From Thermoanaerobaculia bacterium (GTDB taxonomy: Bacteria; Acidobacteriota; Thermoanaerobaculia; UBA5066): DNA of 64,000 nt. Position 1 is the first letter of the stretch; each line of letters starts with the position of its first letter. Both the position numbers and the translations under genes were made by a program. The notes under the pieces are model-generated. The model had not been told where the DNA came from and made no database searches. It was given only the letters and a program-made list of their open reading frames with translations. Shown here piece by piece: positions 2 through 59,847 of the stretch. The stretch is taken from positions 319,982-383,981 of the forward strand of contig CAWEJK010000009.1 of the NCBI GenBank assembly GCA_963809425.1, given 5' to 3'.

Positions 2-950
2 GAAGCGACGCTCGTTCAGGCCTCGCGGCGCGCCGCCCTTCGGGCCCGCCGCGACGCGGGCCGCCTCGAGGCTCCGCCGTCCGAGAAACGCCGCGGCCGC
101 GTGCCGTTCCGGCTCGCGCCCGGAGGCCGGCAGGAGCTCGCGATCGTGTGGAAAAACCTTCTCGCCTGGAAACGCACGAGCCTCGCCCGCCAGGCCGTCT
201 TCCTGGGATTTCTCGCGGCCGCGTTCTTCGCGGCGTCCGCCCTGCTGACGGCGCCCTCCGCGGACTCCGCGGCCGGGATCGCGAGCATGACGTGCCTCGG
301 AACAACCGCTCTCCTCGCCCTCGTCACACCTCTCGGCTTCCGGATCGACCTGCGCGGCGATCTCGAGTACGCCGCGGTCCTCAAGACCTGGCCGCTCCCC
401 GCCGAGCGGCTCGTCGTCGCGGAGCTTTCCGCGCCGGCCCTCGTCGCGGTCCTCTACAGCTGGGGAGGCATCGCGATCGCCCTCGCGATCGCGGCGGGTC
501 GTGCGGCGCGTGCCGCATTTTTCGGAACGGTCGTGGCGGCGCCGCAGGGTTCTTTCCTGCGGTTCGAAGTGATCGTGCCCGTCGCCTTGACGGTGGCCGT
601 CCTGCTGCCGAGCTTCGTCGCGCTCGCGCTCGTGGTCCAGAACGCGTCCGTTCTCGCTTTTCCGGCCTGGTTCCCGGCGGGCCGCAAGCGCGCCGTCGGT
701 CTCGAGCAGTCGGGCCTCCGCGTGCTGTCGTTCCTCGGCACGTCTCTCGTTCTCGCCGTCGCCCTCGTCCCGGCGGCGCTCGTCGCCGGGCCGCTGATCT
801 TCTTTACCTTCAGGCCCCTCGGCTTACTGGTCCCTGTTCATCGGCGCCGTTCTCGCGGGCCTGACGGTCCTCGCCGAAGCGGCCGGAGGGGTCGTCCTCC
901 TCGCCCGTCTGTTCGAGCGATTCGATCCGGCTCGGGACCTCGGTTCCTGA
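2..950 (+). CDS. Polytopic membrane protein, putative ABC-type exporter permease. The 5' end runs off the window and there is an apparent +1 frameshift near 797-830.
   Basis: Frame of ORF 101..1642 is open back to base 2. It translates as a multi-TM protein (IVWKNLLAW..., many hydrophobic helices). Near 826-829 (a CCCC run) the hydrophobic reading continues in the +1 frame (SAYWSLFIGAVLAGLTVLAEAAGGVVLLARLFERFDPARDLGS, stop at 948-950), while the original frame turns into R/P-rich junk. The span is 949 nt, which is 3n+1. Confidence 0.4.
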
Positions 951-979
951 AAGTCCGTTTTCTGACAGAATACGCGGCC

Positions 980-1642
980 ATGCCGAGTCCGCTCTCCCTG
1001 CCCGTGCGCGACGCCCTCGAGCTCATCGCGGAATCGAAGGCTCCGGCGTACGGGATGGACCGCCACGACCGCATCGTCTTCTGGAACGAAGGCGCGGAGA
1101 AAGTTCTCGGCTGGTCCACGGAGGACGTCCTCGGAAAGGCGTGCTTCGACGTCCTCGCCGGCCGGGACGTCTTCGGCAACCTCTACTGCACGAAGGAGTG
1201 CCCCGTCGTCGGGTCCGTCATCGCCGGCGATGACGTGCGGCCCTACCTTCTCGAGGTGAAGAAGAAGGGATCGGGCTCCGTGAAGCTCATCGTCCGCGCC
1301 GTTCCGCTGCCCGCGGCGGGTCCGTCGTTCGCGGTGCTCATGCACTTCCTCGAGACGGAGGGACCGGAGCTCGACAACCTGGTCTCGTTGCTGAGGTCGG
1401 CCGTGCGCGCGCCGGCCGGTCTCCCTCCCGTCGATCCTCCGATTTCCGTTTCGCCGCTCAGCGGGCGCGAGAGGGAGATCGTGATGCTGCTCTCGAACGG
1501 CTATGCGGCGCTCAACATCGCGGCGAAGCTGAATCTGTCGCACGCGACGGTGCGAAACCACATCCAGAACGTCCTCCGGAAGCTCGAGGTGCACAGCCAG
1601 GTCGAGGCCGTCGCGCTCGCGTTCCGGCGCGGCTGGATCTGA
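980..1642 (+). CDS. PAS-sensor / LuxR-family helix-turn-helix transcriptional regulator
   Basis: An internal ATG at 980 begins MPSPLS. A PAS-like segment follows (DRHDRIVFWNEGAEKVLGWSTEDVLGKACFDVL). The C-terminus is a LuxR/GerE HTH (REREIVMLLSNGYAALNIAAKLNLSHATVRNHIQNVLRKLEVHSQVEAVALAF). The portion of ORF 101..1642 upstream of 980 belongs to the permease reading frame. Confidence 0.7.
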   Translation: MPSPLSLPVRDALELIAESKAPAYGMDRHDRIVFWNEGAEKVLGWSTEDVLGKACFDVLAGRDVFGNLYCTKECPVVGSVIAGDDVRPYLLEVKKKGSGSVKLIVRAVPLPAAGPSFAVLMHFLETEGPELDNLVSLLRSAVRAPAGLPPVDPPISVSPLSGREREIVMLLSNGYAALNIAAKLNLSHATVRNHIQNVLRKLEVHSQVEAVALAFRRGWI

Positions 1643-1663: not shown

Positions 1664-2611
1664 TCAGGTCGCGGGGCGGATTCCCGTTTGGAGGGCTTCG
1701 AGGAAGCCGGCGCGCGCGAACGCGCGGGAGTCCTCCCGCCGCTCGAGGCTCATGCTGCCCCGTACCTCCTCGAGCGAGGTATGGCCGTGGGTCTCGAGCC
1801 ACTTCTCGATCTCCCGGCGCACGACCTTCAGGTGGCCGGGACCGTTCTGGAGAAGAGCCGAGACCATCTGCACGACGTCCGCGCCGGCGAGAATCGCCTT
1901 CAACGCATCGGCGCCGGTATGGACGCCGCCCGTCACGGCGAGGGACAGGTCCACGCGGCCCGAGATCATCGCGATCCAGTAAAGGCGTGAGAGCAGCTCG
2001 GTCGAGCTCGAGAGGCGCAGGTCCGGCTTCACTTCCTGCGTCTCGAGGTCGATGTCCGGCTGGTAGCTCCGGTTGAAGAGGACGAGCCCGTTCACGCCGA
2101 TCTCCTCGAACTGCCGCGCGAGCGACGCGATCGAGGAAAAATACGGAAAGATCTTCACGGCGACCGGGATCGACACGAGCGAGCGCACGGTCCGAACCGT
2201 GTCGAGGGTGTACGCCTCGAGCGTCGCGCCGCTCGTCCAGAGATTCGTGGACAGGTGGTAGATGTTCAGCTCGAGCGCGTCGGCTCCGGCCTGCTCGAGG
2301 AGTCCCGCGAACGATGTCCAGCCTTCCTCGGTCGTCCCGTTGAGCGACGCGACGACCGGAACATGGACCGATTCCTTGACCCGGTTCAGGTGCTCGAGGT
2401 AGCCGACGGGATCCGTGGGTGTGCGCTGGGTGCGGAGGGGGTCGGCCGTGATCTGTTCCTCGAAGAGCGAGTGGAGCACGATGGCCGGCGCGCCCGCATC
2501 CTCGAGGCGCAGGATCGAATCGAGATTCGCGGTGAGGGGGCCCGCTCCCGCGACGAGCGGGTTCGCCAGCCTGAGCCCGAGGTAGGTTGTCGTGAGATCC
2601 ACTGCATTCAA
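1664..2611 (-). CDS. Class-1 dihydroorotate dehydrogenase-like FMN oxidoreductase (DHOD/DHPD TIM-barrel family)
   Basis: 315 aa with a typical DHOD family N-terminus (LANPLVAGAGPLTANLDSILRLEDAGAPAIVL) and C-terminal glycine-rich FMN-phosphate segment (VTGGVHTGADALKAILAGADVVQMVSAL). It is the last gene of the cytochrome operon. Confidence 0.7.
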   Translation of the reverse strand: MNAVDLTTTYLGLRLANPLVAGAGPLTANLDSILRLEDAGAPAIVLHSLFEEQITADPLRTQRTPTDPVGYLEHLNRVKESVHVPVVASLNGTTEEGWTSFAGLLEQAGADALELNIYHLSTNLWTSGATLEAYTLDTVRTVRSLVSIPVAVKIFPYFSSIASLARQFEEIGVNGLVLFNRSYQPDIDLETQEVKPDLRLSSSTELLSRLYWIAMISGRVDLSLAVTGGVHTGADALKAILAGADVVQMVSALLQNGPGHLKVVRREIEKWLETHGHTSLEEVRGSMSLERREDSRAFARAGFLEALQTGIRPAT

Positions 2612-2667: not shown

Positions 2668-4131
2668 TCACTTGACGCCGAGCTCCGCGAGCACCTTCGG
2701 GTTCGCCTCGTCCTGCGCGAGCACGGCGTGGCAGGCGTCACACTCGGCCGAGATCACACGCCCGTCGGCCGCCTTGTGGCTGCCGTCGTGACAGCGAAAG
2801 CAGCCCGGGAAGTCCTCGTGGCCGAGGTGGTTCGGGTGCGTTCCCCAGGAGATCTTCATGTTCGGCCAGACGTTCCGGCCGTAGATCTTCTGGACCTCGC
2901 GCACCGCGGACTCGACGGTGGCGCGTCGGGCCTGGTAGACGTCCGGGTACTTCGTCTTGTAGAACTCCGTGAGGTCCGTGTCCATGCGTTGGAAGGCCTC
3001 CTCGCGGGTCGGGTACGCAATCTTGAGCACCTCGAGCGATTTCTTGTGGATGAACGGCAGGTCGGGGTTGATGCGGCCCAGGGCCATCGCCTCGTTCACC
3101 GCGCGCTCGGGAAGCTGGAACGCGTGCGTCGGCCGGTTGTGGCAATCGATGCAGTCCATCGTGCGCAGCTCGGCTTTCGGCGCCGCGGGCCCGGCCTTGG
3201 CCTCTTTCGGCGTCTCGGTCGACGCGTACTCCACCGACTTCCCGTCGTCCCCGAGGTACGTCACGGAGTCGATGACCTCGCGGCGCGGGCTCGTCGTGAG
3301 GTACGAGATCCGCTCCTTGTCGTCGAAGTGCCGCCCGTGGATGCCGACCGCCCTGGATCCCATGCGGCCGCCGAGCTTGAGCAGAAGGACGGTCTTCGTC
3401 GGCGTGTTCTTCTCGTCGTCGCCGAATTTCGAGATGATCTTGAGCCGGTCTCCGGTGAATTTCTGCGGCCAGTGGCACTGCTCGCAGGTGGCGCGCGCGG
3501 GCCGAAGCGTGTGCACGGGCGACGGGATCGGGCGCGCGTAGGTTCCGAACGCGACCGCGATGACCTGCCGCACGCCGTCGACCTTCGCCTTGACGACCCA
3601 GGGCGCGCCGGGTCCGATGTGACAGCTCGCGCACGCGATCCGCGAATGCGGCGAGTCGAGGTATGCCGTGTACTCGGGCGCCATCACCGTGTGGCACGTC
3701 AGGCCGCAGAAACGGGAGGAGTCCATGTACTCGACCCCCATATAGGCCGAGAGGCTCAGGATCACGACGTTGACCACCGTGAGGCCGGCGATGAGGATGA
3801 CCGCGCGGCGGAGGTTCGCGTCCCCGAGGTCCACCTTCGGATATTCCGTGGGAAGCGTCCCCTCCCGGCGCAGCCGGCGACGCTCGAAGAAAATCCCGAC
3901 GGGGATGAGAAGAAGACCCACGAGGAAGAAGAACGGCAGGACGAGGATGAAGACGATGCCCGAGTACGGATGGACGGGCTTCGAGTTCATCGTCTCGAAG
4001 AGCCAGAATCCGACGAGCGTCACCGCGGCGCTCGTCGTGAGTCCGACGCCGATCTGCGAAACGCGGTTCCGCCCCAGATAGAAGAGTGGCCTCAGCCACC
4101 CCGAAAGGGGGCCGGATTTCGCCTCGGTCAT
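2668..4131 (-). CDS. Membrane-anchored multihaem c-type cytochrome (NapC/NirT/ImcH-like), putative quinol dehydrogenase
   Basis: 487 aa with three N-terminal hydrophobic helices. Five canonical CxxCH motifs are present (CASCH, CEQCH, CIDCH, CFRCH, CDACH) plus one CGLTCH (CX3CH) motif. Confidence 0.8.
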   Translation of the reverse strand: MTEAKSGPLSGWLRPLFYLGRNRVSQIGVGLTTSAAVTLVGFWLFETMNSKPVHPYSGIVFILVLPFFFLVGLLLIPVGIFFERRRLRREGTLPTEYPKVDLGDANLRRAVILIAGLTVVNVVILSLSAYMGVEYMDSSRFCGLTCHTVMAPEYTAYLDSPHSRIACASCHIGPGAPWVVKAKVDGVRQVIAVAFGTYARPIPSPVHTLRPARATCEQCHWPQKFTGDRLKIISKFGDDEKNTPTKTVLLLKLGGRMGSRAVGIHGRHFDDKERISYLTTSPRREVIDSVTYLGDDGKSVEYASTETPKEAKAGPAAPKAELRTMDCIDCHNRPTHAFQLPERAVNEAMALGRINPDLPFIHKKSLEVLKIAYPTREEAFQRMDTDLTEFYKTKYPDVYQARRATVESAVREVQKIYGRNVWPNMKISWGTHPNHLGHEDFPGCFRCHDGSHKAADGRVISAECDACHAVLAQDEANPKVLAELGVK

Positions 4132-4153: not shown

Positions 4154-4909
4154 TCAGGACAAGAGAGCGTACAGCGTCAGGGTCACGAGGAGAAGTCCGA
4201 GCAGCACCGCCGTCGTACCGATGATCCGCCCGCGCTTCAGGATCTCCGGGCCGGGCGCCGGCGCCGCGATTTCCTCGAGCGCGCCGTCCGCGACGAGGCG
4301 GGCATATTCGGCGGGACGCTCGTGCCGGACCTCGTCCAGGGGCAGAACTCCCGTGAAAATGACCGTGTCCATCGGGAACTTCTCGGGCCGAAGGTGCCCG
4401 TTGAAGAAATGAACCGTGAAGATGAAAACGGTGGCGAGAAGCGCCTCCTCGCCGTGAATGAGGAGCGCCACGTTGAAGAGATCCCCGGGCAGGAAGCGAG
4501 CCCAGAACCTCGGGAACCAGAGGATGAGGCCCGAGCCGCCGATGATCCCCATTCCCCAGAACACGGCCCAATAGTCGAATTTTTCCCAGTAGGTGAAGCG
4601 GTCGAACTCGGGCCGCGGGCCCCTGCCGACGAACCAGCGCACGTGTCCGACGAGCTGCTTGAGATCCTCGAGGCGCGGCACCATCGAGCGCGCACCCCAG
4701 AGGAGGCCGTAGTCGCGGTCGCGGAAGATCCTCTTCAGGAGGCGCGCGAGGTGCAGGCCGAACGTGAGCAGCATGCAGATGGCGAAGACGCGGTGCAGGA
4801 AGCCCGCCGCCTGGAAGCCTCCCACGACCCGCGAGAGTTTCGCGGCCCACGCGCGCTCGGAGAAGAGAAGCGGGAGCCCCGTGAAGGAGAGCCCGAGGAA
4901 GCTCGCCAT
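4154..4909 (-). CDS. Dihaem cytochrome b membrane subunit (Ni/Fe-hydrogenase/FdnI-type cytochrome b family)
   Basis: 251 aa with 4-5 predicted TM helices and conserved His-containing helices (FLHRVFAICMLL, LIHGEEALLATVFIFTVHFFNGHLRPEK). It sits directly upstream of an 11-haem cytochrome, as in Geobacter Cbc complexes. Confidence 0.6.
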   Translation of the reverse strand: MASFLGLSFTGLPLLFSERAWAAKLSRVVGGFQAAGFLHRVFAICMLLTFGLHLARLLKRIFRDRDYGLLWGARSMVPRLEDLKQLVGHVRWFVGRGPRPEFDRFTYWEKFDYWAVFWGMGIIGGSGLILWFPRFWARFLPGDLFNVALLIHGEEALLATVFIFTVHFFNGHLRPEKFPMDTVIFTGVLPLDEVRHERPAEYARLVADGALEEIAAPAPGPEILKRGRIIGTTAVLLGLLLVTLTLYALLS

Positions 4910-5010
4910 CAGGAGGACGTGGAGCGAGCGGTCGTACCCGTCGAACCGGCGGACCCAGCCCGTCGTCGCCGCCTACTCGGCGGCCGGAGGTGCGGGAGAC
5001 TCTTCGGGCA

Positions 5011-6252
5011 TCACGCTTCTCCCCCCCTCTTCGCATCGGCGTCCCGGCGCGCCTTCACCGAGCGCGGGAACCAGAGCACGGTGTGGATCCCGAAGAAGGC
5101 GAAGACGCCCACGAGCAGGATCTTCATGAAGAGCGAGGTCGCCCAGAGCAGCTGGCTTCGTCCCCGGTCGTGCGTGTCGGCGTGCGGGTCGTATTTCGCG
5201 AAGCTCGCTCCGACGCCGGGATGACATTTCTGGCAGGTCGCGACGCGCTTCGCGGGCCCGACGGACGAGCGCGCGTCGCCGGCCGGGTGAATCTCGTGCG
5301 CCGTGTGGCAGTCCGCGCAGGTCGCCACGCGGGTGAAGCCCATCGCGCTGACCTGACCGTGATAGGTGTCGCGATAGGTCTTGAGCTGGCGCTCGTGACA
5401 GCCGCCGCACTCATGGAGGATCTGGAGGCGCCGGACCTCGGGAGCCGCCGTGATCGCGTGCGCGGTATGGCAGTCGGCGCAGACGGGCACCTTCAGGTTG
5501 TTCTTCGCGAGCTGCTCGCCGTGGATCGAGGTCGCGTACTCGTCGAGAATCTTCGAGTGGCACGTGCCGCAGGTCGCGGGGATCTTCGATCGAAACACGA
5601 GGCTCTCGGGATCCGTCCTCGGATCGCGGATGGCATGCGCCCCGTGGCAGTTCGCGCAGTTCGGCGCGACCGCGAGCCCGCTCTTCTCGAGCGCCTTGCC
5701 GTGGATGCTGTCGTGGAAGAGGGCGGGCTGGTTCACCGCGGGTCCGCCCGCGCCCGGCACCACCGCGATGTTCGCGTGGCACCTCAGGCAGGTCGTCGGG
5801 AGATTGAAGTGATTCGTCCGCGAAGCGGGGTCCTTCGACGGCCGGATGTCGTGGATCCCGTGGCAGTCCGTGCAGGTCGCTGCCTTGCTGGCCTTCGATT
5901 TCCCGCGCTCTGCGGCATGCACGCTCTTCCGATACTCCTCGACCTCCGACGCGTGGCAGGAGGCGCAGTCGACCGGGGCGAGCTTCTCGGCGTGGGGAAA
6001 ATCCGTCGTCCGGGCCAGGTCCTGGTGGCAATCGACGCAGGCGGCACCGGCGGCCCCGTGCACGGAGTCGCCGAACGCTTTCTTGTCCACGAAAAGGGAG
6101 GACCCATCTGCCCTCTTGGCGGATGGGTCCTCGTGGCAGGCGAGACAGTCGTCGTTCGGCGGGAGGCTTCGGGGCGGCGGCGGGGCCGCCGCCCGGAGGG
6201 GGGCGGCCGTGAACAGAAACGCGGCGAGTACGCCCCCGAGCCTCATCCGCAT
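5011..6252 (-). CDS. Undecahaem c-type cytochrome with signal peptide and C-terminal transmembrane anchor
   Basis: 413 aa with an N-terminal signal peptide (MRMRLGGVLAAFLFTAAPLRAAA) and 11 CxxCH motifs (CLACH, CVDCH, CASCH, CTDCH, CLRCH, CANCH, CGTCH, CADCH, CGGCH, CADCH, CQKCH). A C-terminal hydrophobic helix (LLWATSLFMKILLVGVFAFFGIHTVLWF) precedes a basic tail. Confidence 0.8.
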   Translation of the reverse strand: MRMRLGGVLAAFLFTAAPLRAAAPPPPRSLPPNDDCLACHEDPSAKRADGSSLFVDKKAFGDSVHGAAGAACVDCHQDLARTTDFPHAEKLAPVDCASCHASEVEEYRKSVHAAERGKSKASKAATCTDCHGIHDIRPSKDPASRTNHFNLPTTCLRCHANIAVVPGAGGPAVNQPALFHDSIHGKALEKSGLAVAPNCANCHGAHAIRDPRTDPESLVFRSKIPATCGTCHSKILDEYATSIHGEQLAKNNLKVPVCADCHTAHAITAAPEVRRLQILHECGGCHERQLKTYRDTYHGQVSAMGFTRVATCADCHTAHEIHPAGDARSSVGPAKRVATCQKCHPGVGASFAKYDPHADTHDRGRSQLLWATSLFMKILLVGVFAFFGIHTVLWFPRSVKARRDADAKRGGEA

Positions 6253-6256
6253 CGAT

Positions 6257-6586
6257 TTACTTGGACGCGGGATCGCCGGGGTTCGTCCCCTTCTTGAGCT
6301 CGTCGCCGTTCGACACGCCGTCTCCGTCGCTGTCCAGCTTCTCGAGAGCGACGAAATCGTACTTGCCGTCCTTGCCCTTCACCTTGTTGAGGTCCGCGCC
6401 GAACTTGTTCACGGCGGCCTCGCCCTTCTTCGGCATGGCCTTCGTGTGGCAGGACCCGCATTTGACCTTTGAGTCGGGATACTTCTTCAGAACTTCCTTC
6501 TGGAGATCCATCGCGGCGAACGCCGAGCCCGCGACGAGCGCGGCGGCCGAGGCGAGGGTGACGACTGCGAGACGTGTCTTATTCAT
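6257..6586 (-). CDS. Secreted monohaem cytochrome c with an acidic DxDGDG segment
   Basis: 109 aa with a signal peptide (MNKTRLAVVTLASAAALVAGSAFA) and a single CGSCH motif. The C-terminal segment (LEKLDSDGDGVSNGDELKKGTNPGD) resembles a calcium-binding loop. Confidence 0.7.
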   Translation of the reverse strand: MNKTRLAVVTLASAAALVAGSAFAAMDLQKEVLKKYPDSKVKCGSCHTKAMPKKGEAAVNKFGADLNKVKGKDGKYDFVALEKLDSDGDGVSNGDELKKGTNPGDPASK

Positions 6587-6599
6587 GTCGCTGTTTCCT

Positions 6600-8537
6600 T
6601 CAGGGGCGCCACTTGAGGTAGACGCCGATTCGATTCGCGCGGAAGCTGCTCGATGCGATCTGATAGTCGAGATAGCGGTCGACAGACCACTCGCCGATGA
6701 GTCCGACGTTCGCCGTCGCGTCGAAGTCGACGCGGGCGCCGCCGCGATAGAGACGGTATTCGTAAGTGCCCTCGTTCGCGAAGCGGGTCCAGAAGCCGTC
6801 GATGGCCAGCTTGTCGAACTTGACGCCCAGGCCGGCTTCCAGGAGCTCGCCGTCTTCCTTGTTGACGGAGTCGAACGTCGTGAAGTCCTGCGGAGCGCGG
6901 ACGGGGATCCTGCTGTCGGCCTGCATCTTGCCGTAGGCCCCGTGGAGCCGCAGCATCTTGACCGGCGTGATCGTGACGTCGCCCGTGTACTGGCGCGACG
7001 TGCCCTTGGAGTTGATGAGAAGCGTGTCGTTCTTCTGGTCGACCCAGAGACCGGTTGCGCCGAGCGTGAGCCACGGGAAGCCCTTCCAGGTGGCGCGCAC
7101 GCGCTCGCGGTTGCGGCTCGTGAAGTCGGTCCTGAGAACCGCCACGTCCGCGTCGTCCCACGACACCTCGCCCGCGATGAAGAATCCGCCCGCCGCGTAC
7201 GTGAGGGCGCCCTCGTAACGGTTGATCGTGCGGTCGAAGTTCCCGCCCTGACCGCCCGGGACGACGATCTCGGCCGGATCCTCCGAGACGACGAGGTTCT
7301 GCTGCGTCTGCGACCATCCGGCGCGGATGCCGAAGGGCCCGAAGACCTTCGCGGACGCCTGGACGTCGTAAACGTCTTCCGTGCGCTCGATGGAGTTCTT
7401 CGCGTTCAGCAGCGTCTGGAGGTCGGCGAGCGTGAAGCCCGTGAACGTCGTGGTGCCGCTGTACAGGGTGCTCACGAGGTCCTGGCCGTCCCACGTGGCG
7501 TTGCGACGGACGAAACCGCCCGTCACGTCGACGCCCTCGAGGGCGTGCCACTCGACGCGCGCGCCGGCTCGCCAGACGGAGTTCTGGACGCGGGACGACG
7601 CACTCTCGGTGAGGCCGGTGAAGAAGCGCGAGATGGGGAACGACACGAGGGAGCCGGAAGCGCTCTCTTTTTCCGTGTCGTCTCCGGACGCGTTCGCCTT
7701 GACGTAGAAGCCGATCAGCTGAAGGGAATCGGTCGCGAAACCGCGCAGGAACACCGAGGTCGTCGGGGTGTTGATGTCGGTGACGCTCGTGCGTGAGTAG
7801 GAAGAGAGGTTCAGGTTCTTGTCGAGCACAGGACCCGGGTTGTTGCCGGCGCCCGCCCCGTTGAGGAGGCTGAGCGTCTCGGTCTCCCGGTAGCGGCGCC
7901 AGCCCTGGAGAAACTCGCCCGACACCGGTCCGGCGCGGAAGCCGGCGCCGACGCGGATCTCCTGGTCGTGGACCTTGAGATCCTGCCCGAGGCGAAATTC
8001 ATCCTGGCCGAGAAAGGTCGTCGAAAATCCCGGACCCTTCAGCTTGTTGGACGTGTACCCGACGAGAGGCGTGACGACGGCCCCGGGCAGAAGCTCGAGG
8101 TTGAGGTCCACCATGTCCCGGGTCCGATCCCAGGTCTGCTGACCGACCGGCGCGCCGAGCGGATTCGCGAAGCCGGCGAGCGCGCTGAACTGATCGAGGT
8201 GGCGATAGGAGGCACGGAGGCGATAGGCGCCCGTGAGGCCCGCATCGAGCCTCAGGGACCCGGCGGGGCCGGCCCCGAGCTCGGAGCCGTCGATCCGGAG
8301 GCGGTCGAGAATCGGGAATCCGTTCGTTTTTCCGTCCTCGCCGATGTGGATGCTGCGCACGAGAACCCCTTCGCTCTCGTTGATCTGAGAGCGATAGGAC
8401 TCTTCGCTGCCGCTGAGAGTGAGAAAGCGGTAGCCCACCTCGATGTCGAACGGAATCGCCTGGGCACGGGCGACGCCGGCCGAACCGAGGACGGAGGCGA
8501 GAGCGGCGACGAGGAAGGCGGAGCGGAATGTTCGCAT
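6600..8537 (-). CDS. Outer-membrane beta-barrel protein, MtrB/PioB-like porin partner of the decahaem cytochrome
   Basis: 645 aa with a signal peptide (MRTFRSAFLVAALASVLGSAGVARAQA). The sequence has alternating beta-strand-like character with many aromatic strand ends and C-terminal ...YLKWRP. It lies immediately downstream of the MtrA-like gene (stop 8548, start 8537), the same order as mtrA-mtrB. Confidence 0.6.
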   Translation of the reverse strand: MRTFRSAFLVAALASVLGSAGVARAQAIPFDIEVGYRFLTLSGSEESYRSQINESEGVLVRSIHIGEDGKTNGFPILDRLRIDGSELGAGPAGSLRLDAGLTGAYRLRASYRHLDQFSALAGFANPLGAPVGQQTWDRTRDMVDLNLELLPGAVVTPLVGYTSNKLKGPGFSTTFLGQDEFRLGQDLKVHDQEIRVGAGFRAGPVSGEFLQGWRRYRETETLSLLNGAGAGNNPGPVLDKNLNLSSYSRTSVTDINTPTTSVFLRGFATDSLQLIGFYVKANASGDDTEKESASGSLVSFPISRFFTGLTESASSRVQNSVWRAGARVEWHALEGVDVTGGFVRRNATWDGQDLVSTLYSGTTTFTGFTLADLQTLLNAKNSIERTEDVYDVQASAKVFGPFGIRAGWSQTQQNLVVSEDPAEIVVPGGQGGNFDRTINRYEGALTYAAGGFFIAGEVSWDDADVAVLRTDFTSRNRERVRATWKGFPWLTLGATGLWVDQKNDTLLINSKGTSRQYTGDVTITPVKMLRLHGAYGKMQADSRIPVRAPQDFTTFDSVNKEDGELLEAGLGVKFDKLAIDGFWTRFANEGTYEYRLYRGGARVDFDATANVGLIGEWSVDRYLDYQIASSSFRANRIGVYLKWRP

Positions 8538-8547
8538 CGGCCTGTCC

Positions 8548-9459
8548 TTACTTCAGCAGCTGCGGCGAGCGCTGGGAACCGTGCACGGCGATGTGACAGG
8601 TCGTGCAGTTCTTGTAGCGCGGCAGCGAGATATTGTGGAAAGAAGGCGGCTGCGAGCCCAGAGTCCCCTTCGCGAGCGTCGAGTGACACTCGAGACACTG
8701 CGAGGCGATCGTGGCCCTCTGCAGCTGGTGGGGATACGAGGAGCCATGCGGGATGTGGCAGCTCGTGCAGTCGCCGGCGACACCGTTGACGTGGGGATAG
8801 ACGAACGGACCGCGCACTTCCGCGTGACAGGAGACGCAGCCGGGCTCACCCGCCCGGGTCTCGCGCACCGCGTGCTTGGCCGAACGGCCGTGCGGGTCGT
8901 GGCAGGACACACAGGAGAGCGCCCCTTCTTTCAGCCTGTGTGCGTACGGAAGCGTCCGGAAGGAGGACGCCGCGTCCTGATGGCAGGTCGCGCAGAGCCG
9001 CGTCGGCTCGGACACGAGCAGGTTCGCCTGCTTCGGGCTCGACTTGTGGATCGCGTGGCACGAGAGGCAGTTGACCGCCTCGGACGACGCATGAACTCCC
9101 GTCTTGAACGACGAGCGCTCCGCGGACTGCTTGTGACAGGTCGCGCACGTCTCGGCGCCGGTACGGCCATGGAGCGTCCGGATGAGGGTCTTGTCCCCCC
9201 CGGCCTCCATGTGCTTCGTCCCGTCGCCGTGACACGTGGCGCAAACCTCGTTGCCCAGGGCGCCCTCGTGGGCGGCGCCGTAGGCACGCGTGTGGGGATT
9301 ACCCGCGAAAATCTTGGCCTCGTCGTGGCAGTCGGCGCACGCGGGGCCGGCCTCCACCTTCGCGGGAGCCGGGCTGGCTGGGGCCTGGGCCGTGGCCACC
9401 CCCGCCGTGAGCACGGCGAGGGCGGCGGCGGCGAATGCCCCGGGCGAGAGGTGTTTCAC
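8548..9459 (-). CDS. Periplasmic decahaem c-type cytochrome, MtrA/DmsE/PioA family
   Basis: 303 aa, GTG start, with signal peptide and exactly ten CxxCH motifs (CADCH, CATCH, CATCH, CLSCH, CATCH, CVSCH, CVSCH, CTSCH, CLECH, CTTCH). About 30 aa per haem is characteristic of the MtrA family. Confidence 0.8.
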   Translation of the reverse strand: MKHLSPGAFAAAALAVLTAGVATAQAPASPAPAKVEAGPACADCHDEAKIFAGNPHTRAYGAAHEGALGNEVCATCHGDGTKHMEAGGDKTLIRTLHGRTGAETCATCHKQSAERSSFKTGVHASSEAVNCLSCHAIHKSSPKQANLLVSEPTRLCATCHQDAASSFRTLPYAHRLKEGALSCVSCHDPHGRSAKHAVRETRAGEPGCVSCHAEVRGPFVYPHVNGVAGDCTSCHIPHGSSYPHQLQRATIASQCLECHSTLAKGTLGSQPPSFHNISLPRYKNCTTCHIAVHGSQRSPQLLK

Positions 9460-9471
9460 GGCCTCTACTCG

Positions 9472-11598
9472 TTACCGCGCGTGAACTTTCGCGACGTCGA
9501 GATCGGTTCCGGTGCCGTGGCAGGTTCCGCAGGCCTCGGCAGGAGCGGTCGGGTCTTTCGGGAAGAACGCCGTGTTGAGGAATGCGTGCGCGGCGACGTC
9601 GCGGCTGTCATGGCAGCCGGTGCATGCGGCAGTCGCCGAGCCGCGCGGGGAGAAGAAGTCGCGATCGGTGACGACCGGAACGTTCGTGAGCGGGAGCGGG
9701 AGCGCGTAGCTGGCCGCGTTCACGTGGCAGGCGAGGCAGTTCCGGCGGTCGCCGGGGTACAGAACCTCGTTGAAGCTGGCCCCGGTGCCGGAGTTGCCGA
9801 AGATCGTGAAGTCCTGCGTCAGATTCTCGCCCGTGTGGATGCGGTGGATCATGCGCGCGAACTCGATCGACTCGCCGGGGGCGTCCTCGGGCTTGGCACG
9901 ACGGGCAAGGTCGGTGCCGTTCGGGTTGTGGCAGATGACACAGTGCTCGATCGTGATGCGCTGGTTGCCGTGCGAGAAGAGGACCTTGAGGTCCTGGTGG
10001 CACGAGTTGCACTTCGTGAGAGAGACGACCGTCCTGCGCGGAACGACCGTCGTGCCCGTGACCGCGAAGGAAAACGGCTGGTTCGGGGCGCCCTCGTTGA
10101 CCGAGGTCGGGCCATTCGTCGGGGCCGGGTTCAGCACGATCGGGCGGCGCGTGTCGATCGAGACGGTGTACGAGCCCTTGGCCGCGGCCGGGAGGGCGTT
10201 CGTGAACGTGTATGTCGCGGTGCCCGTGGCCGCGTCATAAGTGACCGGTGTCCCGCCCGTGGGCGGAATGGCCGGGCTCTCACTGAACGGCTGGCCGTTC
10301 GCGGCCATGCCGGCGTTCGTGTAGTCGGTCGTCGGTCCGCCGAGTTTGATGCTGAGGGAGCCGTTCGAGGAGGTCTTGTAGATAGTCGGGTCGACGAACG
10401 AGCCGTCGCCGTTCTTGAGCTGGAATTTCACGGTGATCTTCTTGCCGGGGCCCGCGTTCGAAACCGAGAGGATCGTGGCCGTGTAGCCCTTGAGCTGGGC
10501 CGAGTGGAGCGGAACGACGTGGGCGTTCTTGATGCCGGCGTCCCACTCGACGTCGCCCTGGGGCTTATGGCAGTCCACGCACGTGCCGTCCGCGGCCGGT
10601 CCGACGTTCGAGTGGTTCGCGCCCGTGACGAAGTTCACGTCGCTGTGGCAGGAGCCGCAGGCCGCGATCGAGGGCTTCGTGTACCAGCTGTCTCCGCCGA
10701 CCGCCGTCTTGTCGTGGCAGGACTCGCAGTTGCGGATGTCCTGCGGGTACGTCATGCCCGGAACGACCTCCTCTTCCAGCCCCGCGTGGATGCGGTGCCA
10801 GAAGACCTGGCCGTTGTACCGGCCGCGGTCCTCGCCCGGCTCGCCGCCCGAGCCGGCGATCAGGCCCGTCATGTTGTTCGGGTTGTGGCACATCGTGCAC
10901 GTCTTGAGGTCACGGTAGTTGCCGCCGTGCAGCGCGAGCGGGTCGTGGCACTGGTTGCACTTCGCGAGCTTCGAGGCGTTCCACGTCGTCGCGACCGCGT
11001 TCGTGGACGGGACGAAGTCCAGGTACTGCGGCACCGCGTAGTACTGCTTGCCGATGATGTCGGTCGTGTTGCGCGCGCCCATGACGGCGAGCGTGTGCGG
11101 CTTCGTCGCGTCCATCGTCGCCGGGAGGGCGTTCGCGAACGTGTACTTGTAGTGGCCGGTCTCGAGCTCCTGGAATGTGCCCGTGTTGTCGCGGCCCGGG
11201 TTCGCGTTCTTGGCTGGGTCCGCGTTGAAGCCGATGTAGTTCGTGTAGTACTTCTTCGTCGCGTCCCAGACGGCCGGGATGAACCGGATCGAGATGACGC
11301 CCGGCGTCAGAAGGCCGTTGCGGTCCAGGGGTCCCTTCAGGTCGTCGGTCATGAAGATCTCGACGACGGGCTTCTGGCCCGCCGCGAAGTTCGTGACCGA
11401 GGCGATCTTCAGGTTGAAGCCCGGGCGGATGTACGTGAGCTGGTCCGGCGCGAGGAAGGCTTCCTTCTGGGTGGACGCGTAGGCCACCGGAACGTCGGCC
11501 GCCGCCGGGGTATGGGGGCTGGTGCGCGTCACGGGCGTCATGGGCACCGCGACGAGACCAGCGAGGAGAGTAAGAGCCGTACGTGATACCAGTGACAT
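9472..11598 (-). CDS. Large secreted/outer-surface decahaem c-type cytochrome, OmcA/MtrC-like
   Basis: 708 aa with an AAGGAGG ribosome-binding site 7 nt upstream of the ATG at 11598 and a signal peptide. Ten CxxCH motifs fall in two penta-haem groups (CNQCH, CTMCH, CESCH, CGSCH, CVDCH; then CNSCH, CVICH, CLACH, CTGCH, CGTCH). A T/S/G-rich beta-domain separates the two groups. Confidence 0.7.
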   Translation of the reverse strand: MSLVSRTALTLLAGLVAVPMTPVTRTSPHTPAAADVPVAYASTQKEAFLAPDQLTYIRPGFNLKIASVTNFAAGQKPVVEIFMTDDLKGPLDRNGLLTPGVISIRFIPAVWDATKKYYTNYIGFNADPAKNANPGRDNTGTFQELETGHYKYTFANALPATMDATKPHTLAVMGARNTTDIIGKQYYAVPQYLDFVPSTNAVATTWNASKLAKCNQCHDPLALHGGNYRDLKTCTMCHNPNNMTGLIAGSGGEPGEDRGRYNGQVFWHRIHAGLEEEVVPGMTYPQDIRNCESCHDKTAVGGDSWYTKPSIAACGSCHSDVNFVTGANHSNVGPAADGTCVDCHKPQGDVEWDAGIKNAHVVPLHSAQLKGYTATILSVSNAGPGKKITVKFQLKNGDGSFVDPTIYKTSSNGSLSIKLGGPTTDYTNAGMAANGQPFSESPAIPPTGGTPVTYDAATGTATYTFTNALPAAAKGSYTVSIDTRRPIVLNPAPTNGPTSVNEGAPNQPFSFAVTGTTVVPRRTVVSLTKCNSCHQDLKVLFSHGNQRITIEHCVICHNPNGTDLARRAKPEDAPGESIEFARMIHRIHTGENLTQDFTIFGNSGTGASFNEVLYPGDRRNCLACHVNAASYALPLPLTNVPVVTDRDFFSPRGSATAACTGCHDSRDVAAHAFLNTAFFPKDPTAPAEACGTCHGTGTDLDVAKVHAR

Positions 11599-13530: not shown

Positions 13531-14805
13531 TCAGGTGACGGCCGGACCCTCGTCCGCGAAGCGCCGCCAGCGCTCCTCGTCGAGCACACGCCGGAACCGC
13601 GCGACCGCTTCGACGAGGTCGGAAAACCGCGTCGCGAGCGGCGAGAGCCCGAAACGGATCAAGTCGGGCGGCCGGAAGTCGGGAATGACGTTCATCTCCC
13701 CGATGAGCGCGCGGTCTACGGCGAGGCCCTCGGGGTGGCCGAACGAGACGTGCGCGCCGCGCCGCGCGGCGTCGCGCGGCGAACGCAGCGTCACGCCGCG
13801 CGTTTCGAGAGCCGACTCCCACAGGCGCACGAGGAACTCCCCGAGGGCCACGGTCTTCTTCCGGGCCGGCTCGATACCCGCCTCGAGCGCGAGGTCGACA
13901 CCCGCCTCCGCGCCGACGAGCGAAAGGATCGGCGGCGTGCCCACGAGGAACCGCGAGATGTCCCGCGCCGGCTCGTACCCGTCCCGGAACGAGAAGGGCT
14001 CGTGGCGCGAGAACCAGCCGGGAATCGGGTTCTGAAGAGTCTCCTGCAGCGCGCGGCGCACGTAGAGAAAGGCGGGCGCGCCCGGCCCTCCGTTCAGGTA
14101 CTTGTACGTGCAGCCGACCGCGAGATCCGCGCCGGACGCCTCGAGGTCGACCTGGACCGCGCCGACGGAATGGCTGACGTCCCAGAGAACGAGCGCGCCT
14201 TTCGCGTGGGCGCGCGCCGTGACCGCCGGGAGGTCGTGGAGGAATCCGCTCCTGTAAGCGACGTGCGACAGCGACACGAGCGCCGTGTCCTCCGTGATGG
14301 CTGCGCCGAGATCCGCGTCGTCGATCGCGATGCCGTCGCGCGACGGGACGACGACGACGCCGTGTCCCGCCTCCAGGAGGGCCGCCGCGCCTTCGAGGAC
14401 GTAGAGATCCGACGGAAAGTTCAAAGCGTCCGTGACGATCGTGCGGCGTCCGCGCCGCGCCCGGAGCGCCGCCACGGCGAGCTTGAAGAGATTCACGCTG
14501 GTGCCGTCGGACACGGCGACCTCGCCGTCCCCCGCGCCGAGGAGACGCGCGAGCTTGTCGCCGACGCGGCGCGGCGCGTCCACCCACCCGTCGTTCCAGC
14601 CCCGAACGAGGCGCGCGCCCCATTCCTCCTGGACGGCGCGCCCGACGAGAGCCGCCGACCTCTTCGGCAACCGCCCGAGCGAATTGCCGTCGAAATAGAG
14701 GAGGTCCTCGTCGTCGAACACGAACTCGTCGCGGAAGCGCGCAAGCGGGTCCGCGCGGTCGAGCGACCGGGCCTCCTCGCGGAGCGCTTCCCAGGGAATC
14801 GTCAA
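13531..14805 (-). CDS. kynU: Kynureninase-like PLP-dependent enzyme (aminotransferase class V fold)
   Basis: The N-terminal ~175 codons of ORF 13531..15321 are R/G-rich junk overlapping hemL. The real protein starts at a TTG whose last base overlaps the hemL TGA stop (TTGA, 14802-14805). Kynureninase-type motifs are present (LLYFDGNSLGRLPK, ...VGCTYKYLNGGPGAPAFLYV). Confidence 0.55.
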   Translation of the reverse strand: MTIPWEALREEARSLDRADPLARFRDEFVFDDEDLLYFDGNSLGRLPKRSAALVGRAVQEEWGARLVRGWNDGWVDAPRRVGDKLARLLGAGDGEVAVSDGTSVNLFKLAVAALRARRGRRTIVTDALNFPSDLYVLEGAAALLEAGHGVVVVPSRDGIAIDDADLGAAITEDTALVSLSHVAYRSGFLHDLPAVTARAHAKGALVLWDVSHSVGAVQVDLEASGADLAVGCTYKYLNGGPGAPAFLYVRRALQETLQNPIPGWFSRHEPFSFRDGYEPARDISRFLVGTPPILSLVGAEAGVDLALEAGIEPARKKTVALGEFLVRLWESALETRGVTLRSPRDAARRGAHVSFGHPEGLAVDRALIGEMNVIPDFRPPDLIRFGLSPLATRFSDLVEAVARFRRVLDEERWRRFADEGPAVT

Positions 14806-16163
14806 CCGCCGGCCGGAAGTGAAAAGGCCGCTCTCAGCCCGGCTTCGTGAGCCTTCACGGTGGCCGCGACGTCGCGTGCCGTGTGCGCGGTCGAGACGAA
14901 CATCGCTTCGAACTGCGCCGGAGCCACGAAGACGCCGCTCCGGAGCAGCGCGTGGAACCAGCGCTTGAACGCTTCGAGGTCGGACTTCTTCGCGTCGTCG
15001 AAGTTCTTCACGGGGCCCACGGTGAAGAACGGCGTCAGGATCGATCCCACGCGGTTGATCGAGACGCGGTCCTGGACGCCGAGCTTCTTCGCGGCGGCGT
15101 TCAGCCCGCGTTCGAGCTCCTTCGCGGTCTTCTCGAGCTTCACGTAGACGGCGGGCGTCAGGCAATCGAGCATCGCCTTCCCCGCCGCCATCGCGAGCGG
15201 GTTCCCGGAGAGCGTTCCGGCCTGGTACACGGGGCCGTCCGGCGCGATCCGCGCCATGAGGTCCGCGCGGCCGCCGTAGGCGCCGACGGGCAGTCCCCCG
15301 CCGATGATCTTGCCGAGGCACGTCAGGTCGGGCCGGATCCCGTACAGCTCCTGCGCTCCGCCTCTCGCCACCCGAAAGCCGCTGATGACCTCGTCGAAGA
15401 GCAGCAGCGCTCCTTCGCGGTCCGCGATGCGGCGGAGGCCCTCGAGAAAGCCCGGGGCAGGCGCCACGACGCCCATGTTCGCGGCGATCGGCTCGACGGC
15501 GATGACGGCGATGCGCTTCGGATGCGCCCGAAAGAGGTCCTCGACGGACTCCAGGTCGTTGTAACGCGCGGTCAGCGTGAGGCCGGCGAGAGAGCTCGGG
15601 ACGCCGGGCGAGCCCGGAATGCCGAGCGTCGCGAGACCCGAGCCCGCCGAAACGAGAAACGAGTCGGCGTGCCCGTGGTAGCAGCCCGCGAACTTCAGGA
15701 CGAGGTCGCGGCCCGTGGCGCCGCGCGCGAGGCGCAGCGCGCTCATCGCGGCCTCCGTTCCCGAGGACACGAACCGCACCTTCTCGATCGACGGGAAGGC
15801 CTTCGTGACGCGCTCGGCGAGCTCGACCTCCCCCTTCGAAGGCGCGCCGTAGGACGTGCCGCGCGGCAACGCCCTGCGGACCGCCGACAGGACCGGCCCG
15901 TACGCGTGCCCGAACACGAGCGGCCCGTACGACATGACCCAGTCGACGTACCGGTTCCCGTCCGCGTCGATCAGGGTCGCGCCGCGGCCCTTCTTCACGA
16001 AGAACGGCTGGCCGCCCACGGACGCGAACGAGCGCACCGGCGACGACACGCCGCCTGGCATGCGTTTCTTGGCTCGTTCGAAGAGCGCTTCGGATTGAAG
16101 AGTTCTGCGGTGACGCTTTCGACCGGTAGTGGCGCTTCGTGCTGATTTATCGCTCATCGTCAT
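14802..16163 (-). CDS. hemL: Glutamate-1-semialdehyde 2,1-aminomutase
   Basis: 453 aa with family hallmarks (ALFERAKKRMPGGVSSPVRSF, ...DEVISGFRV...). The exact start within the first ~30 codons is uncertain. Confidence 0.9.
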   Translation of the reverse strand: MTMSDKSARSATTGRKRHRRTLQSEALFERAKKRMPGGVSSPVRSFASVGGQPFFVKKGRGATLIDADGNRYVDWVMSYGPLVFGHAYGPVLSAVRRALPRGTSYGAPSKGEVELAERVTKAFPSIEKVRFVSSGTEAAMSALRLARGATGRDLVLKFAGCYHGHADSFLVSAGSGLATLGIPGSPGVPSSLAGLTLTARYNDLESVEDLFRAHPKRIAVIAVEPIAANMGVVAPAPGFLEGLRRIADREGALLLFDEVISGFRVARGGAQELYGIRPDLTCLGKIIGGGLPVGAYGGRADLMARIAPDGPVYQAGTLSGNPLAMAAGKAMLDCLTPAVYVKLEKTAKELERGLNAAAKKLGVQDRVSINRVGSILTPFFTVGPVKNFDDAKKSDLEAFKRWFHALLRSGVFVAPAQFEAMFVSTAHTARDVAATVKAHEAGLRAAFSLPAGG

Positions 16164-58275: not shown

Positions 58276-58374
58276 GACCCCGATGCTAATCTCGACACGC
58301 CGTGGTTTGAAAGGGCGGCGGGAGCGACGCGCAATCCGCGCTCCGGGCGGCTTCGTGTCAAACTCTTCGCGGCC

Positions 58375-59811: not shown

Positions 59812-59847
59812 GCTTCACTCTTCTCACTTCTTTCACCGAGGTCACCC

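Follow-up and report, generated by a model that had tools for sequence, protein, structure and literature searches.

The locus and its cytochrome genes

The window is the whole 64,000-nucleotide stretch of Thermoanaerobaculia DNA that was analysed. It carries on its minus strand a tightly packed cluster with the order mtrC-like gene, mtrA-like gene, barrel gene, monohaem cytochrome c gene, 11-haem cytochrome c gene, cytochrome b gene and ImcH-like gene (Table 1). The intergenic gaps calculated from the coordinates range from -1 to 22 nt, which is consistent with one operon, and from this spacing the cluster is predicted to be a single transcriptional unit. A promoter and terminator scan of the cluster revealed nothing above chance.

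Table 1. Features of the cytochrome cluster in the window
Feature	Coordinates	Strand	Basis
OmcA/MtrC-family surface decahaem cytochrome	9472..11598	-	TIGR03507, MtrF match
MtrA/DmsE-like periplasmic decahaem cytochrome	8548..9459	-	motifs, MtrA match
Outer-membrane barrel candidate in the MtrB position, 645 aa	6600..8537	-	mainly position and size
Monohaem cytochrome c, 109 aa, with signal peptide and bacterial TSP3 calcium-binding repeat	6257..6586	-	domain search
c subunit of a split CbcL/MtrH/MtoC-type complex (putative)	5011..6252	-	motifs, helix, homology, conserved pairing
b subunit, dihaem cytochrome b of the FdnI fold, five membrane helices	4154..5011	-	frame, fold, homology
In-frame TAG stop within the variable N-terminal stretch of the b subunit	4973..4975	-	reading frame
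ImcH-family inner-membrane quinol dehydrogenase	2668..4131	-	homology to a listed member, motifs, helices

The first two proteins of the cluster each contain 10 CXXCH motifs. The MtrC-like protein scored 421.7 bits against TIGR03507 (cut-off 209.3) and matched MtrF (3pmq_A) with an E-value of 4.6e-42, and the MtrA-like protein scored 184.3 bits against TIGR03508, just below the cut-off of 192.2, and matched the MtrA chain 6r2q_A with an E-value of 3.9e-23. The barrel candidate gave a weak, below-cut-off match to PF11854 (E-value 0.0054), which was found in one of seven homologues, and no sequence match in the PDB. The first-pass annotation of this DNA had described a cytochrome b and c module in the same operon as an MtrCAB-type conduit. 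The MtrC-like and MtrA-like genes and the tight gaps support this description, while the barrel resembles MtrB weakly. The module was also said to be embedded inside mtrCAB; we found that it lies 3′ of mtrCAB. Between the two, the monohaem cytochrome c is a candidate periplasmic carrier. It is 81-84% identical to proteins encoded at the same position in three related contigs (L001, L003 and L036), and a 109-aa gene occupies that position in a fourth (L082).

Two overlapping genes encode a probable CbcL-type pair

Translation of the c-subunit ORF gave a 413-aa product in which a signal peptide precedes exactly 11 CXXCH motifs; its one hydrophobic helix is located at the C-terminus (residues ~367-396). 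The first-pass annotation had recognized both the haem count and the single C-terminal helix. The 11 motifs fall within the range of 3 to 23 in the published CbcL/MtrH/MtoC family. Their spacing is nearly the same as that of published fused family members with 11 and 19 haems, and is unlike that of Geobacter CbcL.

The c and b genes are two ORFs in different frames. The b gene starts with an ATG at position 5011 that overlaps the TGA of the c gene (TGATG), and the two genes are predicted to be translationally coupled via this overlap. Profile searches and PDB sequence searches both identified the b subunit as an FdnI/Ni_hydr_CYTB-like cytochrome b, with FdnI as the top PDB sequence match. Its AlphaFold model (pLDDT 85.6) had FdnI (1kqf_C) as the sole significant fold match in the PDB, with TM-scores of 0.61 and 0.74. 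In agreement with the original proposal, an FdnI/HydC-type cytochrome b is thus encoded next to the c gene. The residues His18, His57, His155 and His169 of FdnI aligned with H31, H73, H186 and H201 of the b subunit, which are the candidate haem ligands, and these four histidines were invariant in alignments of 78-81 sequences. The histidine of the anchor helix is invariant as well.

We found that the c and b proteins are collinear with one fused 910-aa protein (P0336; A3C47_05160, OGW82754.1). The c subunit aligned with its residues 257-626 at 41% identity (E-value 9e-87) and the b subunit with its residues 642-906 at 51% identity (E-value 2e-92). Table S2 of Zhong and Shi 2018 (PMC6295460) includes OGW82754.1 among the CbcL/MtrH/MtoC homologues. 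Together, the pair has six helices, of which the c subunit contributes its terminal one and the b subunit the other five, and their spacing fits the positions tabulated for GSU0274: counted from the start of the anchor helix, the following helices start at +71, +109, +187, +222 and +302 in the window and at +66, +114, +192, +226 and +304 in GSU0274. The C-terminal anchor of the c subunit corresponds, as judged from sequence, to helix 1 of the six helices of CbcL. The histidines of the split pair are located in the anchor, TM1 and TM2, with two more in TM4. Likeness to the type proteins CbcL and ImcH was drawn from the published family list and the tabulated motif positions, not from direct alignment, and no Geobacter protein appeared among the top matches of the homologue searches and the cluster look-up. 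Collinearity, helix spacing and the four FdnI histidines in the reading frame all uphold the CbcL-type pairing suggested at the outset. We assign a probability of roughly 0.7 to the reading that each of the two genes encodes one half of an inner-membrane quinol:cytochrome c oxidoreductase of the CbcL/MtrH/MtoC type. The pair is a split-gene version of this already described family, which carries electrons from the quinone pool towards the outer-membrane metal-reducing machinery.

An in-frame TAG interrupts the b gene

From the ATG at 5011, the b frame runs through 12 codons to a TAG (codon 13), and is followed by the conserved motif RRFDxxDRxLH, which contains the first haem-ligand histidine. 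The next canonical in-frame start after the TAG is an ATG at 4909 (M35), which lies 3′ of the invariant residues R22, F23, R28 and H31. The limits first given for the b gene (4154-4909) cover only the part 3′ of this TAG. Lack of the four haem-ligating histidines in the cytochrome b had been named as a refuting result: the full frame has all four, while the ORF at 4154-4909 lacks one because of the TAG. The first-pass annotation mentioned neither the b start at 5011 and the TAG, nor the ImcH homologue at 2668-4131, nor the omission of the split form from the 2018 survey.

Full-length b homologues are 275-290 aa in length and carry no stop at the TAG site. No stop was found there in the close relatives L082 and L001. 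The homologue P0016, whose start is that internal Met as well, also lacks the stop, and its contig has a run of N at that site. A b allele with or without the TAG gave no match in the metagenome contig collection. Reassignment of TAG was rejected because this codon is the ordinary stop for 8 of the 33 well-supported genes in the window. Given the in-frame TAG, the complex may not function in the window organism; that is, the window copy of the CbcL-type module may be broken.

The pairing is conserved among related loci

Upstream sequence was available for 78 related genome loci, and in 77 of these a c-type partner lies directly upstream of the b gene. These partners are encoded by a separate gene in 57 loci and are fused with the b domain in one reading frame in the other 20, and many fused c-b proteins of ~680-1000 aa are present in databases. 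Haem counts of 11-13 are found in most of the 77 adjacent partners, and all 77 keep the anchor-helix histidine (His390 in the window), so that, contrary to what had been supposed, neither the 11 haems nor the C-terminal anchor is unusual.

The order mtrC, mtrA, barrel, (monohaem c), c subunit, b subunit and imcH is kept in five related Thermoanaerobaculia/Acidobacteriota contigs (L001, L002, L006, L008 and L036), and three further contigs (L003, L081 and L082) are partial or gapped. The closest relatives of the locus are from Thermoanaerobaculia MAGs, and Burkholderiales and Casimicrobiaceae are also among the loci. At a broader scale, hundreds of species-level genomes from many phyla carry the split cbcL pair, and imcH often comes next. 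This split form was missed by the 2018 survey of Zhong and Shi. With its conserved anchor histidine, it may be the dominant form in Acidobacteriota.

An ImcH-type gene follows the pair

The ImcH-like gene starts 22 nt downstream of the b gene. Its product is 49% identical over the full length (E-value 4e-154) to OFW24447.1, as read from contig L012, and OFW24447.1 is an ImcH homologue in the published family table. Three hydrophobic segments (residues 27-45, 52-85 and 106-133) match Table S3 entries such as 27-46, 61-83 and 113-135. The first haem motif is of the CX3CH type (CGLTCH, residue 142) and is followed by five CXXCH motifs. The protein also matched Pfam Cytochrom_NNT over residues 111-198 (E-value 1.1e-11) and the NrfH structure 2j7a_C (E-value 1.2e-5).

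Proposed electron path

We propose that the dihaem b domain would oxidise menaquinol, with the quinone site of FdnI suggesting the cytoplasmic side as the probable place of this reaction, and that electrons would traverse the membrane via the two b haems to the 11-haem chain. From there, the MtrA-like/barrel/MtrC-like conduit could receive them, perhaps through the small monohaem protein, and deliver them to extracellular Fe(III)/Mn(IV). The ImcH-type enzyme is of the NrfH/NapC kind, and its quinol site would be periplasmic. The location of an ImcH-type gene beside the CbcL-type pair therefore suggests two energetically different entries from the quinone pool into one outer-membrane conduit, given the energetic roles of CbcL and ImcH in the literature.

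These considerations lead to a wider and quite tentative proposal, which we hold to be doubtful as a whole. The seven-gene unit of mtrC, mtrA, barrel, monohaem c, split cbcL and imcH might be a self-contained, redox-potential-adapting EET cassette of Thermoanaerobaculia and other Acidobacteriota. It would contain two quinol oxidases of opposite energetics, ImcH with a periplasmic site and the CbcL-type enzyme with a probably cytoplasmic one, and the split form would be the dominant one.

Alternative readings

We considered whether the pair belongs to another family. JGI names and automatic annotation call the b protein "cytochrome b subunit of formate dehydrogenase", and its best family and structure matches are indeed FdnI-type, so it might serve as membrane subunit in a formate dehydrogenase or a hydrogenase. 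However, the FdnI-family scores are all far under the curated cut-offs (TIGR01583, 29.5 bits versus 115.85), the neighbours are multihaem cytochromes with no molybdopterin or NiFe subunit genes nearby, and the conserved partner in 77 of 78 loci is a multihaem cytochrome c, often fused. We rejected this annotation on the basis of the sub-cut-off scores, the absence of catalytic-subunit genes nearby and the multihaem c partner, and regard it as hardly credible. Orthology with the Geobacter two-gene bc complex CbcBA would explain the gene order (multihaem c, then b), the C-terminal anchor helix with its histidine, and the Ni_hydr_CYTB-type b subunit. CbcB, however, has four helices and three haem histidines and CbcA seven haems, while the window pair has 5 helices, 4 FdnI-type histidines and 11 haems. 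Moreover, CbcBA and CbcL have been reported to lack sequence homology with each other, whereas the two window proteins reach 41-51% identity with a CbcL/MtrH/MtoC member of the published list. A sigma-54 BccR-like regulator was also not found: the flanking genes examined, namely those for a PAS-LuxR regulator, a DHO_dh-family protein, an M11 peptidase, a class III aminotransferase and ALAD, showed no sigma-54 activator domain. Since the helix, histidine and haem counts differ and the pair aligns with the CbcL/MtrH/MtoC member, CbcBA orthology was rejected as very improbable, and we retain the CbcL/MtrH/MtoC assignment.

Two further alternatives accept this assignment and concern what the module does. 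The b gene could be a pseudogene here: if the TAG is a real nonsense mutation, the b subunit would be unmade or would lack its first haem ligand, the CbcL-type complex would be inactive, and the conduit would be fed by the ImcH homologue alone as the only working quinol oxidase of the operon. This alternative bears on function in the window organism and not on the type of module. The stop itself points this way, being a normal stop in this genome, seen at this site in no close homologue and followed by no in-frame ATG, GTG or TTG before M35; a product starting at M35 would lack R22, F23, R28 and H31, four residues that 78 homologues keep without exception or almost so. Nevertheless, the gene is otherwise intact, is 96% identical to an intact homologue and has a GC3 of 0.88 that matches its neighbour genes, so any inactivation would be very recent. 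An error in the assembly or consensus would explain a one-base change (e.g. GAG to TAG) equally well, and the metagenome collection held the allele in neither form. We therefore consider inactivation possible, but the less likely case. Still more improbable, in our view, is that the module runs in reverse in the manner of MtoC, with quinone being reduced by electrons that extracellular Fe(II), or some other donor, feeds in through the conduit. Because MtoC from Dechloromonas and Gallionella, both Fe(II) oxidisers, also belongs to the family, the sequence does not reveal the direction of flow; Zhong and Shi found no sequence feature dividing oxidising from reducing members (PMC6295460). Relatives from Burkholderiales and Casimicrobiaceae among the loci are a further point in favour of reverse flow. 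Against it, the cluster carries an OmcA/MtrC-type surface decahaem. Such a cytochrome is typical of reducers, and we know of no MtoAB cluster that has one. In addition, the ImcH family, of which a homologue is present here, has so far been found only in Fe(III) reducers, and the nearest relatives are Thermoanaerobaculia MAGs. We thus favour quinol oxidation towards the outer membrane as the probable direction of the CbcL-type pair.

Significance

CbcL homologues next to mtr genes are already known. The first-pass annotation had regarded the joining of a CbcL-type module with an MtrCAB-type conduit as a hybrid wiring not previously described, but Rhodoferax, Dechloromonas, Gallionella and others encode MtrH or MtoC within their mtrABC/mtoAB clusters, according to publications of 2012 and 2018. 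In Acidobacteria, one published survey included five Acidobacteriia genomes and saw no inner-membrane oxidoreductase next to mtrCAB in any of them, and another found only two CbcL homologues. Since the split cbcL pair is present in hundreds of species-level genomes, it could be a better marker of metal respiration in uncultured soil and sediment bacteria. The findings on split cbcL and imcH do not change the accepted working of such systems.

Comparison with known systems

FdnH-FdnI of E. coli formate dehydrogenase-N resembles the window pair in the FdnI fold of the b subunit and in the four haem histidines, which align. FdnH is likewise fixed next to the b subunit by one C-terminal helix (1KQF). 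The window pair differs in that the partner is an 11-haem cytochrome c and not an iron-sulfur protein, in the extra fifth, C-terminal helix of the b subunit, and in its electron flow, which is presumably opposite, as quinol oxidation. CbcBA of G. sulfurreducens (GSU0593-0594; Joshi 2021) is similarly a two-gene bc complex with a histidine-bearing C-terminal helix on the c subunit and a dihaem b subunit; the window pair is set apart by the description of CbcBA, namely its 7 haems, its four-helix, three-histidine b subunit and its sigma-54/BccR control.

The ImcH (GSU3259) family shares with the window protein three N-terminal helices, a CX3CH first motif and an NrfH-like region, and the spacing of the haem motifs is 25/49/111/117/20 in the window protein and 24/49/106/117/20 in ImcH. 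The window protein has six haem motifs, as in members from Anaeromyxobacter and Acidobacteria, while ImcH has seven. The window imcH also adjoins mtrAB-like genes, which the 2018 survey found for no imcH.

MtrH of Rhodoferax ferrireducens and MtoC of Dechloromonas/Gallionella are, like the window pair, CbcL homologues clustered with mtrAB(C)/mtoAB (Shi 2012; PMC6295460). They are fused 9-haem proteins of Betaproteobacteria that occur with cymA and not imcH, whereas the window form is split, has 11 haems, occurs with imcH and belongs to an Acidobacteriota lineage. Finally, CbcL itself (GSU0274; Zacharoff 2016; PMC6295460) has the same plan as the window pair: several c haems in a periplasmic domain, then six helices that include a dihaem b core like that of FdnI/HydC, with the same helix spacing and with histidines distributed one each in helices 1-3 and two in helix 5. 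Geobacter CbcL is a single polypeptide with 9 haems, whereas the window pair has 11 and is encoded by two coupled genes that are split between helix 1 and helix 2. Unlike GSU0274, the window copy carries a premature TAG, and its genes are clustered with mtrCAB-like and imcH-like genes, whereas GSU0274 and GSU3259 are distant locus tags in G. sulfurreducens.

Organisation of the cytochrome cluster

We found seven closely spaced genes on the minus strand from 11598 to 2668, separated by 12, 10, 13 and 4 nt, an overlap and 22 nt. Family and PDB scans matched the first product, of 708 aa, to TIGR03507 (421.7 bits; cut-off, 209.3) and MtrF (3pmq, E 4.6e-42), while the second, of 303 aa, scored 184.3 bits with TIGR03508 (cut-off, 192.2) and matched MtrA (6r2q_A, E 3.9e-23). 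The 645-aa barrel is faintly MtrB-like (PF11854, E 0.0054); among seven homologues scanned, this model recognised one, and one matched Porin_4 rather than PF11854. A PDB sequence search with the barrel (6600-8537) returned no match, and by its sequence it may belong to a divergent barrel family barely recognisable as MtrB/PioB. In the 109-aa monohaem protein (6257-6586), a signal peptide is accompanied by a calcium-binding repeat of the bacterial thrombospondin-type-3 kind (PF18884, E 5.6e-6). The related loci L001, L003 and L036 keep this protein between the barrel and 11-haem genes, at 81-84% identity; L082 has a 109-aa gene in the equivalent slot. This protein may be a periplasmic electron carrier.

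Motif, helix and family scans agree with the first-pass annotation that the MtrCAB-like cluster contains an 11-haem, C-terminally anchored cytochrome c and, beside it, a cytochrome b of the FdnI type. That annotation had placed the module inside the MtrCAB genes; in minus-strand order, the pair comes after them.

Coordinates and features of the cytochrome cluster and its surroundings
Feature	Position	Strand	Remarks
OmcA/MtrC-family protein, 708 aa	11598-9472	-	10 CXXCH motifs
MtrA/DmsE-near protein, 303 aa	9459-8548	-	10 CXXCH motifs
Barrel in MtrB position, 645 aa	8537-6600	-	no haem motifs
Monohaem protein, 109 aa	6586-6257	-	one haem motif
c subunit, 413 aa	6252-5011	-	11 CXXCH motifs, one C-terminal hydrophobic helix
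Cytochrome b-resembling ORF, 251 aa	4909-4154	-	sequence resemblance
ImcH homologue, 487 aa	4131-2668	-	three N-terminal helices, one CX3CH and five CXXCH
ALAD/HemB	16373-17464	-	Pfam E 3.4e-144
Class III aminotransferase, possible HemL	14802-16163	-	domain scan
HemN-like ORF	28185-29612	+	N-terminal sequence alone
HemH-like ORF	29653-30639	+	N-terminal sequence alone
Dihydroorotate-dehydrogenase-family gene	1664-2611	-	56 nt after imcH-like gene, same strand
PAS + LuxR/GerE regulator	101-1642	+	adjoins dihydroorotate-dehydrogenase-family gene

Near the cytochromes are genes for haem biosynthesis. The synteny of the dihydroorotate-dehydrogenase-family gene and the PAS/LuxR regulator also occurs in metagenome contigs L081 and L082. 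Elsewhere, two antiparallel, fully overlapping ORFs of more than 1000 aa with equal GC3 were noted (56524-59811, plus strand; 56695-59814, minus strand), one presumably being the other's shadow.

The pair is a split-gene member of the CbcL/MtrH/MtoC family

The label of a CbcL-type module is right, as the pair aligns to a listed member of the family. This protein, P0336 (fused hypothetical protein A3C47_05160, 910 aa, Omnitrophica bacterium RIFCSPHIGHO2_02_FULL_51_18), has motif positions equal to those tabulated for OGW82754.1 in the published CbcL/MtrH/MtoC homologue list (Table S2, Zhong & Shi 2018, PMC6295460). The c subunit matched its residues 257-626, first helix included (41% identity, E 9e-87), and the b subunit its residues 642-906 (51% identity, E 2e-92). 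Likeness to Geobacter sulfurreducens CbcL (GSU0274) was judged from tabulated positions: helices of the concatenated window proteins start at +71, +109, +187, +222 and +302 from the anchor, against +66, +114, +192, +226 and +304 in CbcL (PMC6295460). The pair has one histidine each in the anchor, TM1 and TM2, and two FdnI-like histidines in TM4. The c-subunit anchor is CbcL's first helix, through a gene split here or a fusion elsewhere.

The haem spacing of the c subunit (36-24-31-28-44-29-30-24-30-28) almost equals that of published 11-haem members, such as Opitutae PAW67162.1 (37-21-29-29-44-28-30-25-34-28), whose first helix at 372-394 is placed as in the window. Two features flagged earlier as unusual, the count of 11 haems and the anchoring at the C terminus, are therefore what this branch of the family normally has.

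Scanning species-representative genomes with the b subunit yielded at least 590 loci, of which the best 80 were examined. These 80 came from Thermoanaerobaculia, Vicinamibacteria, other Acidobacteriota, Burkholderiales, Rokubacteria, Eisenbacteria, Nitrospirota, Ignavibacteria, Planctomycetota and others. A homologue of the 11-haem protein lay directly upstream of the b gene in 77 of the 78 with upstream sequence, and in 20 of these 77 both parts formed one unbroken reading frame. Most of the 77 partners carried 11-13 haems, and the anchor-helix motif G-x-H-T-x-L-W-x-P-R-S, whose histidine is His390 in the window, was conserved among them. Database searches also returned numerous fusions, about 680-1000 aa long, that combine cytochrome c with Ni_hydr_CYTB domains.

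A premature stop interrupts the cytochrome b gene

Domain profile scans showed that family models cover the 251-aa ORF (4154-4909) only from about profile position 17-25, indicating that it begins partway through the first helix. Upstream in the same frame, an ATG at 5011 overlaps the TGA stop of the cytochrome c gene by one base, the A (TGATG), coupling the two genes translationally. From this ATG, the frame reads MPEESPAPPAAE, a TAG at 4973-4975, AATTGWVRRFDGYDRSLHVLL and then the Met at 4909. Numbered from the ATG at 5011, the b subunit contains H31, H73, H186 and H201, which align to the haem ligands His18, His57, His155 and His169 of FdnI (1kqf_C), its top PDB sequence match. All four histidines of the proposed FdnI-type cytochrome b are therefore in the reading frame, and they are invariant across the window and the 80 loci where the region is present. 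In an AlphaFold model (pLDDT 85.6, pTM 0.80), which has a fifth, C-terminal helix, FdnI was the sole significant fold match (TM-scores 0.61/0.74).

The TAG may be a real nonsense allele or an assembly error. TAG is a usual stop codon here, terminating 8 of 33 genes, and this one lies within a short variable N-terminal tail; depending on the alignment, it could have arisen by one base change (e.g. GAG to TAG) or a 3-nt insertion. Full-length homologues, of 275-290 aa, have the equivalent ATG start and no stop through this region; the nearest, P0001, is 96% identical. One homologue, P0016, appeared to start at the same Met as the window ORF because a scaffold gap truncates it. No in-frame ATG, GTG or TTG occurs between the TAG and Met35, and neither TAG-bearing nor TAG-free versions of the allele were found in metagenome contigs. 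As written, the gene would therefore give no product, or one without R22, F23, R28 and H31.

An ImcH homologue adjoins the pair

The seventh product has three N-terminal helices, a CGLTCH and then five CXXCH motifs, and an NrfH/NapC-like region (Pfam E 1.1e-11; NrfH 2j7a_C, E 1.2e-5), features equal to those published for ImcH, a second inner-membrane quinol dehydrogenase. The motifs are spaced 25/49/111/117/20, compared with 24/49/106/117/20 for Geobacter GSU3259, and the six-motif form is that of Anaeromyxobacter and Acidobacteria members (PMC6295460). It is 49% identical over its full length (E 4e-154) to a 455-aa ORF of locus L012 (Acidobacteria bacterium RIFCSPLOWO2_12_FULL_66_21, MELC01000030.1, 8533-12319), which equals the listed ImcH homologue OFW24447.1 in length and motif positions.

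Among the best 80 of at least 590 loci, an ImcH-like gene directly followed the b gene in 30, and in 9 more it was immediately upstream or at another position within 10 kb. In L012, a split cbcL-like pair directly precedes imcH; the 2018 tables enter ImcH and no CbcL for this genome, and two CbcL homologues against 19 ImcH for all Acidobacteria (PMC6295460). That survey seems to have overlooked the split form. Several MAGs of Desulfuromonadales and Syntrophus, as well as Desulfuromonas acetexigens, have neighbouring locus tags or accession numbers that imply cbcL/imcH adjacency. Tag pairs placing cbcL next to or near imcH (PMC6295460, tables S2 and S3) include A2X92_08560/08565, A2X96_02390/02395, A2X79_01185/01190 and A2X80_11560/11570.

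Proposed electron path

By analogy with FdnI and published work on CbcL and ImcH, we propose that the b subunit and anchor helix would form a dihaem membrane module oxidising menaquinol, probably on the cytoplasmic side. A positively charged tail follows the anchor helix; this topology signal, like the domain content, the conserved histidines, the translational coupling and the fused relatives, is an observation rather than part of the proposal. His390 is near the cytoplasmic end of this helix, level with the inner b haem and the FdnI quinone site; we speculate that it is an alternative ligand or part of the quinone pocket. Electrons would leave the b haems for the 11-haem chain and move outward, reaching the MtrA-like protein, perhaps by way of the 109-aa monohaem cytochrome, and then the barrel and the MtrC-like surface cytochrome. 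Judged from sequence, the module may, less probably, run in reverse, reducing quinone as proposed for MtoC. The ImcH homologue would oxidise menaquinol on the periplasmic side. In Geobacter, CbcL serves low-potential and ImcH high-potential acceptors, and the presence of both types in one putative operon suggests, by analogy, that the same division of labour may apply here.

Relation to known systems

A minority of the loci, namely L001, L002, L006, L008 and L036, have a full mtrC-mtrA-barrel set beside the pair; the set is partial in L003, L081 and L082. The cbcL-imcH unit is therefore the widespread element, and since all these loci belong to Thermoanaerobaculia or unclassified Acidobacteriota, the junction with mtrCAB is lineage-specific. 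In 18 of the 80 loci (including L016, L017, L018, L020, L025, L031, L040, L043 and L077), an MtrA-like decahaem gene alone lies within 10 kb, with no MtrC-like gene near; such loci may carry systems of the MtoAB/PioAB or porin-cytochrome type.

Our literature search, incomplete in coverage, found no description of the seven-gene arrangement. The 2018 survey had mtrAB beside imcH in none of its genomes (PMC6295460), and Baker et al. 2022 reported five Acidobacteriia genomes without an inner-membrane oxidoreductase beside mtrCAB. Taken together, the finding is real, and our analysis adds three points: the b gene has a premature stop, an ImcH homologue lies next to the pair, and the split cbcL form is broadly distributed. 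The hybrid wiring had been put forward as undescribed; its general idea is known from Rhodoferax, where MtrH sits with mtrABC and cymA, from MtoC with mtoAB, and from seven more species with a CbcL homologue beside mtr/mto genes (PMC6295460). Both the family of this split-gene pair and the kind of neighbourhood it sits in are thus already known.
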